From Phenylobacterium sp. (GTDB lineage: Bacteria; Pseudomonadota; Alphaproteobacteria; Caulobacterales; Caulobacteraceae), in assembly GCF_022402485.1 (NCBI RefSeq), contig NZ_JAKRSA010000015.1:49270-113269 (forward strand): 64,000 nucleotides of DNA, in the 5' to 3' direction. Positions within the stretch are counted from its first letter, which is position 1. Each line of letters begins with the position of its first letter. The translations under genes and the position numbers were made by a program. Positions 14,918-17,717 of this stretch are shown here, piece after piece. Under the pieces are notes generated by a model. The model worked only from the letters and a program-made list of their open reading frames with translations. It was not told the DNA's origin and made no database searches.

Positions 14918-14994
14918 TGGTCGGAGTGGCAGGATTCGAACCTGCGACCCCCGCGTCCCGAACGCGGTGCTCTACCAGACTGAGCCACACTCCG
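14918..14994 (-). tRNA. tRNA-Pro (CGG)
   Basis: CGGAGTG acceptor stem, anticodon arm CCGCG-TTCGGGA-CGCGG, GGTTCGAATCC T-arm, encoded CCA; 77 nt. Confidence 0.97.
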
Positions 14995-15123: not shown

Positions 15124-15197
15124 TGGGGAATGGTGTAATGGTAACACAGCGGTTTTTGGTACCGTCATTCTAGGTTCGAGTCCTAGTTCCCCAGCCA
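15124..15197 (+). tRNA. tRNA-Gln (TTG), integration target
   Basis: TGGGGAA...; anticodon arm GCGGT-TTTTGGT-ACCGT; GGTTCGAGTCC; ends CCA; 74 nt. Confidence 0.97.
15148..15197 (+). repeat. attL core, 50-bp direct repeat (3' part of tRNA-Gln)
   Basis: AGCGGTTTTTGGTACCGTCATTCTAGGTTCGAGTCCTAGTTCCCCAGCCA, identical to 17668-17717. Confidence 0.95.
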
Positions 15198-15492
15198 GTT
15201 TTTTCCTTCAAAATCAAAATCTTGAGCCGATCTTGGTCGCTCCTAAATTTCCTCTTGGATGTAGGATGCATTCCTACGTCCTGTAAACGGGACCGGCTTA
15301 AGCTCTTACTTTGCGGGAAGCATGGCTGCACCCGAATGACGGCGTGGCTGCCAGCAGTCGAGGCCCAAGCGGGGGCTAACCTGTTTGAGTTTGCCGGGCG
15401 GCCTGAGCCCTTGCCTGAAGTCGCGAGCATGTGGATCACGCAATTATAGCGACGCTCTTCGTGTTGCAACTGTTCCGCGAATTGCGCACACT

Positions 15493-15680
15493 TCGCAGGC
15501 CTCTTAGCTGGGTGAAACACCGGACTTGCGAGGTGTCACTCTATGCCGGGCGCGTAGCCAGGCTGAATTCGATTGCGCGGGATTGGGCGCCGACTTCGGA
15601 ATCCGGAGCCGGTCCCGGCCTGCGTCTCGGCACCGGCTCCGGATTCCGAAGTCGGCCGCTTTAAGTAAGAGGATCTGTGG
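15493..15680 (+). ncRNA. Retron msr-msd ncRNA
   Basis: a1 CCTCTTA (15500-06) followed by G15507 in an AGC context; a2 TAAGAGG (15666-72); pairing extends 7 more bp with one bulge and G-U pairs; small msr hairpins (GGTG-aaa-CACC; CTATGC/GCGTAG); 25-bp perfect msd stem 15589-613/15632-656. Confidence 0.85.
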
Positions 15681-16595
15681 TTGGATCACCCGCTGATTGA
15701 GGAAGCAAATAGTAACCTCCGCAAGCGGGTGATCCAGCTTCTCCAAATGGGCTACAGCGTAGCTCGGGGTGGAAACATTGTCTTTGTGTGTGGCGGAAAT
15801 GAAGTTCACCACATGAGGACCAGATTCCGACAGTATTGTGCAGCTCATCTTAGCGAATTCGAGATATTTTTCCCTGAATTCGCAATGAAAGACTATTTTT
15901 CTTCATCCATTCCGGAGCCATTCGATATTGCTGACTTTGAGTATATTGTTGGCGAGTTATCGCATGCCATCGTTATATTCCCAGAGGCGCCTGGTTCATT
16001 TGCGGAGACTGGATATTTTTCTGCCATAGATAAATTGTCAGAAAAGACAATTCTAGCCCTAGACGCTCCAAGACAAGAATTCGATAGTTTTATTTCAATG
16101 GGTCCAGCGAAAAAGATCGCTGCAAAGTCTATCTTCCAACCGAATGTGCAGATGGATTACCAAGAGCCGACATTTGAATTAGTCGCATCGAGAATTAGGC
16201 GTCTGTCAGTCGCGAAAAATAGAAAACTTCTGAAAGTTGAAAGGTTTAATGATCTTACCGCCTTTGAACTATTTGCCCTCATACATCGTATTGTGACAAT
16301 TCTGTCAATCGCAACGATTGACGATATCATATATATAATGAGAGGCATTTTTAAATCCATAGTATCCGTTTCGAAAATTCGGCATATGGCTTCAATTCTT
16401 GTGGGATGCGAATACATAAAATCAATTGGAAAATATGGACACTATTATGCAAGAAAAGACAAATCTACTCTTTTAGAGGTCAGAAGCGGATTTGTAAATC
16501 AAGAGACAGACATAAGAATTCTTTTGGCCGGCATATATGAAGTTGGAGATTCCGAGTTTATCGAAATCATAGAGGCGTCGATGAATGCTGATTGA
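15681..16595 (+). CDS. Retron effector (St85/Ec86-like: NDT-like N-terminal domain plus C-terminal wHTH-like region)
   Basis: IVFVCGG, IFFPE, AIVIFPEAPGSFAETGYF (E-x-x-GS-x-x-E-x-G-x-F), DSFISMGP; 304 aa; TTG start right after a2; 11-nt overlap with the RT. Confidence 0.85.
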   Translation: MDHPLIEEANSNLRKRVIQLLQMGYSVARGGNIVFVCGGNEVHHMRTRFRQYCAAHLSEFEIFFPEFAMKDYFSSSIPEPFDIADFEYIVGELSHAIVIFPEAPGSFAETGYFSAIDKLSEKTILALDAPRQEFDSFISMGPAKKIAAKSIFQPNVQMDYQEPTFELVASRIRRLSVAKNRKLLKVERFNDLTAFELFALIHRIVTILSIATIDDIIYIMRGIFKSIVSVSKIRHMASILVGCEYIKSIGKYGHYYARKDKSTLLEVRSGFVNQETDIRILLAGIYEVGDSEFIEIIEASMNAD

Positions 16596-17529
16596 TCGAT
16601 TGTGCAAGCAGACAGGCCTAACGCGCGCGCAGATTGACCGGTATGCGGAAACTGCGTCCAATCGATATAAGACTTATTCAATTTTGAAGCGCAATGGTAA
16701 TGAACGAATTATTTCTCAGCCCAGTCGAGAAATTAAAGCCTTGCAGCGATGGTTGGTGAGGGTGCTTTTTCAGCATTTTCCAGTTCACCAGTCTGCGACC
16801 GCTTATGCGAAGGGGTCTAGTATTCGAATTAATGCGGAGCGTCACGTCGACTCAAACTATACGCTTAGAGTGGACTTTCAGGACTTTTTTAGCTCATTCC
16901 GTTCTGAAGATGTTGGCAGATTTTTGAGTGTATCAAACCAAAAATTGAATTTTGATATTAGATTAGAAGATATTTCGATCATCACAAAAATTGTTTCACG
17001 GCATGGCAGGTTAACTGTTGGGGCGCCATCATCGCCGATGCTAACAAATATAATGATGTACGACTTTGATTATCATTTGAATAAATGGGCGTGCGAGCGC
17101 GATGTCGTGTATACAAGATACGCAGATGACATTTTTCTTTCGGCAATGAAAGGAGAGCACTTAAATGGAGCGATGGGGTCTATATCAAGTTTTGCGAGTG
17201 ATTTTGTATTAGCTGATATAAAAATAAATAGTCAAAAGACGGTCTTTCTTTCCAGAAAGGCGCGTAGATCTATTACAGGTTTAGTAATTACAACTGATAG
17301 AGATGTATCTATAGGTAGAGATCGGAAACGTAAGATAAAATCATTAATATATTTACAGAAAATGGGAATATTAGAGAATTCAAAACTATCATACTTGCGA
17401 GGGATGTTGTCTTTTATTTCTGATGTAGAACCTGAATTCTATGAGACCTTGTCGCGTAAGTTTGGCGATTCATTTGTTTCGGCGATTATGAATGGAGCAG
17501 AGACTGGTGTCGAGGACGCTCTGTTCTGA
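16585..17529 (+). CDS. Retron reverse transcriptase
   Basis: RIISQPSREIKALQRW, region X NAERH, VDFQDFFSS, LTVGAPSSPMLTN, YTRYADDIFLS, region Y SITGLVI, SIGRDRKR; 314 aa; no extra domain. Confidence 0.96.
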   Translation: MLIDRLCKQTGLTRAQIDRYAETASNRYKTYSILKRNGNERIISQPSREIKALQRWLVRVLFQHFPVHQSATAYAKGSSIRINAERHVDSNYTLRVDFQDFFSSFRSEDVGRFLSVSNQKLNFDIRLEDISIITKIVSRHGRLTVGAPSSPMLTNIMMYDFDYHLNKWACERDVVYTRYADDIFLSAMKGEHLNGAMGSISSFASDFVLADIKINSQKTVFLSRKARRSITGLVITTDRDVSIGRDRKRKIKSLIYLQKMGILENSKLSYLRGMLSFISDVEPEFYETLSRKFGDSFVSAIMNGAETGVEDALF

Positions 17530-17667: not shown

Positions 17668-17717
17668 AGCGGTTTTTGGTACCGTCATTCTAGGTTCGAG
17701 TCCTAGTTCCCCAGCCA
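17668..17717 (+). repeat. attR core, duplicated 3' 50 nt of tRNA-Gln
   Basis: Exact copy of 15148-15197; lacks the 5' acceptor/D arm, so not a functional tRNA. Confidence 0.95.

Follow-up and report, generated by a model that had tools for sequence, protein, structure and literature searches.

Retrons are bacterial anti-phage systems. In the scheme of Mestre et al. (2020) the St85/Sen2 retron is placed in type II-A1, and types I-A and II-A1 make up one shared ncRNA-reverse transcriptase (RT) module (PMC7736814). Retron-Sen2 of Salmonella Typhimurium (msDNA-St85; msrmsd-rcaT-rrtT) makes an msDNA of 85 nt whose maturation is reported to require debranching by ExoVII, and its sequestered toxin is released upon methylation of a GATC in the msDNA stem (GATC/Dam; bioRxiv 10.64898/2026.10.13.758329). 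Toxin sequestration and release also operate in Retron-Eco1 (Ec86, type II-A3), in which the RT-msDNA complex holds the effector (PMC8989520). For the type I-A Retron-Eco7 (Ec78), cryo-EM has shown that the a1:a2 stem ends in the branching G (G0) and an opposing G (G127); that msDNA nucleotides 1-77 are copied, with 72-77 pairing with msr positions -55 to -50; that the next template base, U(-49), is flipped out and A(-47) blocks the active site; that nucleotides 1-4 are removed at the ExoVII site; and that the RT thumb binds stem-loop 2 (SL2) (PMC12673091). The SL2 equivalent is the RT-recognition hairpin in both Eco7 and Eco1, and Eco1 follows the same termination principle (PMC12673091, PMC8989520).

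The locus considered here lies within a stretch of 64,000 nt from a Phenylobacterium sp. contig, which we call the window and by which all coordinates are counted. Judged by its sequence, the region flagged in an earlier note is the msr-msd gene, encoding a small structured RNA, of an ordinary type II-A1 (St85/Sen2-family) retron. Gene context, covariation, a covariance model and homology to Eco7 all bear out the retron identity that the note had proposed, and the full reading, viz., that 15500-15672 is the msr-msd ncRNA of a type II-A1 retron with a G15507-primed msDNA and a sequestered toxin, is very probably correct. The features of the locus are as follows:

14918-14994, minus strand: tRNA-Pro(CGG).
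15124-15197, plus strand: tRNA-Gln(UUG).
15148-15197, plus strand: left copy of a 50-bp direct repeat (3' part of tRNA-Gln); right copy at 17668-17717.
15464-15469, plus strand: -35 element TTGCAA; most of the 33 loci compared have a TTG-type -35 equally far from CTCTTAG.
15487-15492, plus strand: weak -10 element CACACT (3/6 matches to TATAAT), 17 nt after the -35.
15493-15499, plus strand: outer a1 extension TCGCAGG, pairing with 15674-15680 (TCTGTGG); not supported as part of the RNA.
15500-15506, plus strand: a1 arm CCUCUUA, pairing with 15666-15672.
15507, plus strand: branching G in an A-G-C context, its 2'-OH the predicted priming site; G in 32/32 homologues.
15510-15541, plus strand: msr stem-loop 1, with a GGGUG.../...CACUC base and a variable top (covariation).
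15545-15563, plus strand: msr stem-loop 2, with a conserved G15548-A15560 mismatch (covariation; aligned to Ec78 SL2).
15564-15575, plus strand: linker L1, ending in AUUG (15572-15575) (conservation and Eco7 alignment).
15585-15661, plus strand: msd stem-loop (covariation and DNA fold).
15664-15665, plus strand: A15664, the predicted first templated base, and G15665, the "opposing G" facing the branching G (Eco7 homology).
15666-15672, plus strand: a2 arm UAAGAGG, pairing with a1; also the stretch most like a Shine-Dalgarno sequence ahead of the effector gene.
15681-16595, plus strand: effector gene of the RcaT/STM3845 family (NDT-like domain and DNA-binding domain) with a TTG start (NCBIfam, PADLOC and PDB matches).
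16585-17529, plus strand: retron RT gene, overlapping the effector gene by 11 nt.

The ncRNA, which ends at 15672, the effector and the RT form one operon in this order, which is common to 33 loci and is that of type II-A1 and of Sen2. The likeness to Sen2 extends to both proteins, each scoring above the curated cut-off of its family: the effector matches NCBIfam NF038232 ("retron St85 family effector", i.e. STM3845/RcaT) with 168 bits (cut-off 100), and the RT matches NF038233 (retron_St85_RT) with 322.5 bits (cut-off 235). PADLOC models concur (NDT_II-A, 3e-48; RT_II-A, 3e-105). The effector is further homologous to the NDT-like/DNA-binding effector of Retron-Eco1 (PDB 7v9x_C, 4.8e-15), and the alignment to it places the retained catalytic Glu, shared with Sen2, within FPEAPGSFAETG; this Glu is the residue mutated in the catalytically dead PDB structure of the Ec86 effector. 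A local Pfam-A search with the effector returned no match; PF28093 is carried by its homologues in their precomputed annotations, where alone it was seen. The assignment of the effector to the II-A1 class, with an N-terminal NDT-like domain and a putative C-terminal DNA-binding domain, rests on these family matches. The best PDB match of the RT is the Ec78 RT (3e-53), in alignment with which the NAxxH, YADD and VTG-like motifs of retron RTs are visible as NAERH, YADD and ITG. At E <= 1e-20 the RT has more than 2000 matches among database proteins; the nearest are 59-65% identical and, where named, labelled "retron St85 family". Both proteins can be named automatically by the NCBI pipeline, and the ncRNA class has already been described (PMC7736814).

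Several traits set the locus apart from these relatives. Unlike Sen2, it resides in an alphaproteobacterial (Caulobacteraceae-like) host, its msd lacks GATC and has one GANTC duplex instead, and its stem-loop 1 is longer, the RNAs being compared indirectly. Eco7 has PtuA/PtuB (Septu) effectors encoded downstream of the RT, whereas here the RcaT gene lies between ncRNA and RT; its msd, at 77 nt, is shorter and has another stem sequence, and its a2 is 43 nt from the next start codon, whereas here a2 is placed as a ribosome-binding site. Eco1 differs in an RT of another clade (the window RT scores 138 bits against it versus 185 for Ec78), in the gene order ncRNA-RT-effector and in an msDNA that stays branched.

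To compare the RNA we drew on 80 loci from genome collections and four loci with the closest RTs; a search for related loci with the single RT protein as query returned none, and an alignment query was needed. The comparison set comprised 35 loci, the window included, with an effector match that is full-length and at least 39% identical and with sufficient DNA ahead of it, and 260 nt upstream of the effector were compared in each. In 35/35 loci this RNA precedes the effector gene; a simple motif search sufficed to locate it in 34 of them. Its shared plan runs from CUCUUA-G-C through stem-loop 1 (GGGUG/CACUC base), stem-loop 2 (GCCGGG...CCAGGC) and AUUG to an msd that is conserved at its base (GCGCCGAC/GUCGG-N-CGC) and tip (CCGG/CUCGG) and freely variable in between, and closes with G-UAAGAG, which stops a few bases short of the effector start.

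Within the window copy, 15589-15613 is the exact reverse complement of 15632-15656, so that the perfect 25-bp stem around an 18-nt loop described in the earlier note is precisely as stated; a repeat search stretches the stem to 29 nt at 97%. The msd stem-loop is built of five outer pairs, a one-base bulge (C15656 or C15657), the 25-bp stem, a C15614-C15631 mismatch and, inside the 18-nt tip (15614-15631), four more pairs (15615-15618 with 15627-15630). The earlier note had proposed an RNA fold and a covariance alignment as checks, and both speak for its model. Folded as RNA, 15485-15690 reaches -108.6 kcal/mol (z = -5.8; 0/200 shuffles as good), and the predicted msDNA strand (the complement of the msd) folded as DNA reaches -42.1 kcal/mol (z = -9.9). 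For a hand-specified structure of 53 pairs in 32 distinct sequences, standard pairs occupy 96.5% of the cells and 24/53 pairs show compensatory changes on both sides, 20 of these in the msd stem; none of 500 shuffles equals the real alignment in percentage paired, compensatory pairs and cells, or covariation score, and the best slid control is 50% paired.

The msr hairpins and the long msd stem-loop are therefore conserved as structures, and the inverted repeats a1 and a2 come with a conserved G directly 3' of a1, as in retrons. By element, stem-loop 1 has five basal pairs that are 99.4% paired (two with compensatory changes), stem-loop 2 has six pairs that are 100% paired, with the G-A mismatch in 31/32 sequences, and the msd has 33 pairs that are 95.6% paired (20 compensatory). 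The pairing of CCTCTTA (15500-15506) with TAAGAGG (15666-15672), which sets G15507 opposite G15665, holds across the homologues: six pairs are kept in 32/32, varying only between U-A and U-G. The seventh, C15500-G15672, is C-G in 18, U-A in 2 and unpaired in 12, and is thus clade-specific, the universal core being six pairs. G15507 in its AGC context, picked out in the earlier note as the branching base, is likewise invariant (32/32), as is the G at the position of G15665 (32/32). In the AUUG at 15572-15575, A is found in 31/32 and U, U and G in 32/32 each.

A covariance model built from the 32-sequence alignment has a single plus-strand match in the window, at 15500-15672 (174 bits, the third-best score of its family, with every invariant position kept); its only other match in the window is the msd palindrome on the minus strand (15589-15655, 50.5 bits). 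Elsewhere it finds RNAs upstream of retron genes in Alphaproteobacteria, Betaproteobacteria, Acidobacteriota and others. Rfam, run over the whole window at the gathering threshold and over 15400-15750 in E-value mode, returned no retron family, yielding only tRNAs and spurious sub-threshold miRNA-type hairpin matches to the palindrome. Although made from II-A1 sequences only, the model also recognises type I-A (Ec78-like, PtuAB) RNAs at about 60 bits (L086:4515-4658, L058:2646-2793), which fits the shared IA/IIA1 ncRNA-RT module of Mestre et al. One of these type I-A matches led us to an E. coli chromosome bearing Ec78 (locus L086), whose ncRNA is matched with 61 bits (E = 8e-17), and whose RT hardly differs from PDB 9l7p (693 bits across all 311 aa) and has ptuA and ptuB behind it. 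With this match and with SL2, linker and AUUG all aligned, the RNA falls in the IA/IIA1 structural class (PMC7736814), as judged from the covariance model and the alignment to Ec78.

This Retron-Ec78/Eco7 ncRNA served as the experimental anchor. In its DNA, G4523 of UUUAGC lies exactly 127 nt before G4650 of AAGUAAAGAG, and A-U-U-G stands at +47 to +50, so the numbering of the Eco7 structure maps directly onto the Ec78 sequence. By alignment, Eco7 G0 corresponds to G15507; G127, the opposing G, to G15665, and template nucleotide 126 to A15664; SL2 to 15545-15563; and A(-47)U(-48)U(-49)G(-50), whose termination state was seen by cryo-EM (PMC12673091), to 15572-15575, the linker from SL2 to the last templated G being 10 nt in both. 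The UUA-G-C branch context and the opposing G before UAA are also common to the two. Side by side with these correspondences we note that the G-A mismatch of the msr stem-loop 2 (G15548-A15560) is present in Ec78 as well.

Taking A15664 as the first and G15575 as the last templated base, the msDNA is predicted to run from the dT opposite A15664 to the dC opposite G15575, i.e. over 90 nt, and the same end rule gives 88-91 nt in most homologues once a second ATTG is corrected for. That second motif (15582-15585), which a search for the last (A/G)TTG took as the stop in some sequences (about 80 nt), was set aside because in the Ec78 alignment the homologous motif is the first (15572-15575). The earlier estimate, an msDNA beginning beside a2 and measuring roughly 80-90 nt, thus agrees with the prediction, with the refinement that the first base would be A15664, G15665 being the unpaired opposing G. 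Its expectation that both ends map within 15580-15665 fits on the 5' side (15664); the predicted 3' end at 15575 falls 5 nt outside, so the limit of 15580 was slightly too tight and, should the predicted end be right, would wrongly reject the model. At the 5' end, C15508-G15665 and U15509-A15664 are pairable in 32/32 sequences, with one-sided changes only; the RNA may adopt this alternative register with G15507 bulged, and the 5' end prediction is therefore good to within 1 nt.

The first four msDNA nucleotides are predicted to be TTAA, as in 16/33 homologues, which resembles the tetranucleotide (TTGA/TAGA) that Eco4, Sen2 and Vch1 lose by cleavage (PMC11701397). Given that relatives are debranched by ExoVII (bioRxiv 10.64898/2026.10.13.758329) and that the host genome encodes RNase H and XseA, the mature DNA is probably an unbranched 86-mer, cut by ExoVII behind nucleotide 4 and retaining a heteroduplex of about 6 bp with an msr remnant (15575-15580), which would compare with the 85 nt of Sen2. 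Since such debranching after nucleotide 4 is found in the clade and the host has xseA, treatment with DBR1 before sequencing the msDNA may be unnecessary. The msDNA ends, the ExoVII trimming and the behaviour of the toxin are all transferred from relatives with 28-40% RT identity.

The promoter proposed in the earlier note, TTGCAA-N17-CACACT, is conserved in position, though its -10 is weak: in 17/33 loci the sequence that best resembles a sigma-70 promoter stops 7-8 nt short of CTCTTAG, as against 2/33 in a control stretch. A generic promoter scan passes over the CACACT site, which has fewer than 4/6 matches. With the -10 element ending at 15492, transcription is predicted to start near 15499. 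This bears on the extent of the a1/a2 stem, which the earlier note had carried outward through 15493-15499 and 15674-15680. The pairs, the bulged A15673 and the three G-U pairs are indeed there, and RNAfold uses all seven; moreover, other retrons have longer a1/a2 arms (e.g., 9 pairs are readable in Ec78). If part of the RNA, they would make a 14-bp stem (15493-15506 with 15666-15680) and demand a start upstream of 15493. However, the extension belongs to this copy only, being kept in 0/32 homologues, which average 1.4 pairs against 1.5 in mismatched cross-controls. Shuffles of the window's own flanks reach seven pairs in 1.1% of cases, and at a chance of about 1% per sequence one case in 33 is unremarkable. 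The outer 7-bp extension is thus no better than chance and, with a start near 15499, is probably left upstream of the transcript, so that we regard the 14-bp stem as unlikely.

The retron sits on an islet of about 2.5 kb bounded by the 50-bp repeat of the tRNA-Gln 3' end, the two copies of which are 100% identical and 2520 bp apart; just upstream, tRNA-Pro and tRNA-Gln are divergently arranged. No recombinase is encoded inside the 2520 bp, and no tRNA genes or long direct repeats were found around the closest retron relatives; the tRNA-Gln islet is thus particular to this genome. GC content falls to 35-45% within the islet, as compared with 64-70% in the genes on either side and about 68% in the genome. 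Such a foreign islet in a GC-rich host, together with the poor -10 hexamer and the TTG start of the effector, might betray an inactive relic, in which the RNA gene is still recognisable and no msDNA is made in this host. We consider this quite improbable, as both ORFs are intact with their catalytic motifs, the ncRNA ranks third in its family with its invariant positions in place, TTG starts are common to the closest homologues, and RNase H and XseA are encoded by the host. Among public reads, one DNA metagenome run, kept as contigs, contains the locus, with a depth of 14.3 over the islet against 12.8 and 13.1 in the flanks; these contigs show neither an excess of depth over the msd nor an empty-site joint. 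A short contig over tRNA-Pro has a depth of about 230 in this run and is presumably shared with other organisms.

That the palindrome is instead a terminator, an attenuator or a repeat element unrelated to reverse transcription, as its strength, its GC-richness, its minus-strand score and its likeness to generic Rfam hairpin models might suggest, is scarcely credible and was rejected, for no T-run follows the hairpin and no terminator-like site was called; in many phyla it invariably sits just ahead of retron genes, with the conserved msr hairpins on one side and a2 on the other; and it can be aligned with the msd of Ec78, of which cryo-EM has shown the DNA copy (PMC12673091).

Returning to the type II-A1 retron, we propose, by analogy with its relatives, that the promoter would drive one operon transcript comprising the ncRNA, the RcaT-like effector and the RT. 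The RT would recognise msr stem-loop 2 (15545-15563) and prime DNA synthesis at the 2'-OH of G15507, copying the msd RNA leftwards from A15664 until the active site jams at G15575 on the invariant AUUG and the 10-nt linker, as in Eco7 and Eco1. Host RNase H1 would remove the template, leaving a 90-nt msDNA that is mostly a long GC-rich hairpin, and host ExoVII would cut after nucleotide 4 (TTAA), as in Ec78, Ec83 and St85, to give the 86-nt unbranched DNA. The RcaT-like toxin would be sequestered by RT and msDNA and, once a phage protein has modified or degraded the latter, be set free to abort the infection; this defence by toxin release is transferred from Sen2.

The locus hence adds one more intact, well-resolved type II-A1 retron, from a freshwater Caulobacteraceae-like genome, with base-level predictions of its branch point (G15507) and msDNA (15664 to 15575), and leaves the knowledge of retrons in general unchanged. 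The Eco7 cryo-EM landmarks (opposing G, 10-nt linker, AUUG stop) carry over cleanly to II-A1 retrons that are only distantly related and are usable for predicting RT-DNA ends when choosing retrons for editing tools. The earlier note had also suggested that the stem could be an engineerable RT-DNA scaffold; nothing found singles out this retron for that use.

The least ordinary traits of the locus, which we give as leads, are that a2 is the best ribosome-binding match of the toxin gene and that the msDNA stem has a GANTC duplex. Within the 25 nt that precede the TTG start, nothing pairs more strongly with the anti-SD than UAAGAGG, at a distance of 7 nt (-5.8 kcal/mol). In 33/33 loci, 5-11 nt separate the end of TAAGAG from the effector start codon; a UAAGAGA subgroup has no good SD at all. 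Pairing of a1 with a2 would occlude the ribosome-binding site of the toxin. As for the second trait, GANTC is the site of the methyltransferase CcrM. The duplex (GAATC/GATTC) occupies 15599-15603 and 15642-15646, i.e. msDNA nucleotides 19-23 and 62-66. One might conjecture that in the alphaproteobacterial II-A1 clade a2 doubles as the ribosome-binding site of the toxin, with a1:a2 folding shutting off its translation, and that, separately, the GANTC duplex senses CcrM-type phage methyltransferases; we hold this to be doubtful. If it were so, the a1:a2 step that licenses synthesis of the msDNA, the antitoxin, would also silence translation of the toxin on the same transcript, and the sensing of GANTC would be the counterpart of the GATC/Dam trigger in Sen2. 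Of 32 homologues, 14 have GANTC in the msd, versus about 7 expected from shuffles, these sequences not being independent of one another; the site recurs at two stem positions and is absent from the Rhodobacterales-type group. Near the tip of the msd, the conserved mismatch position 15614/15631 is C-C in 17/32 sequences and unpaired in 28/32, and it would become G-G in the msDNA.
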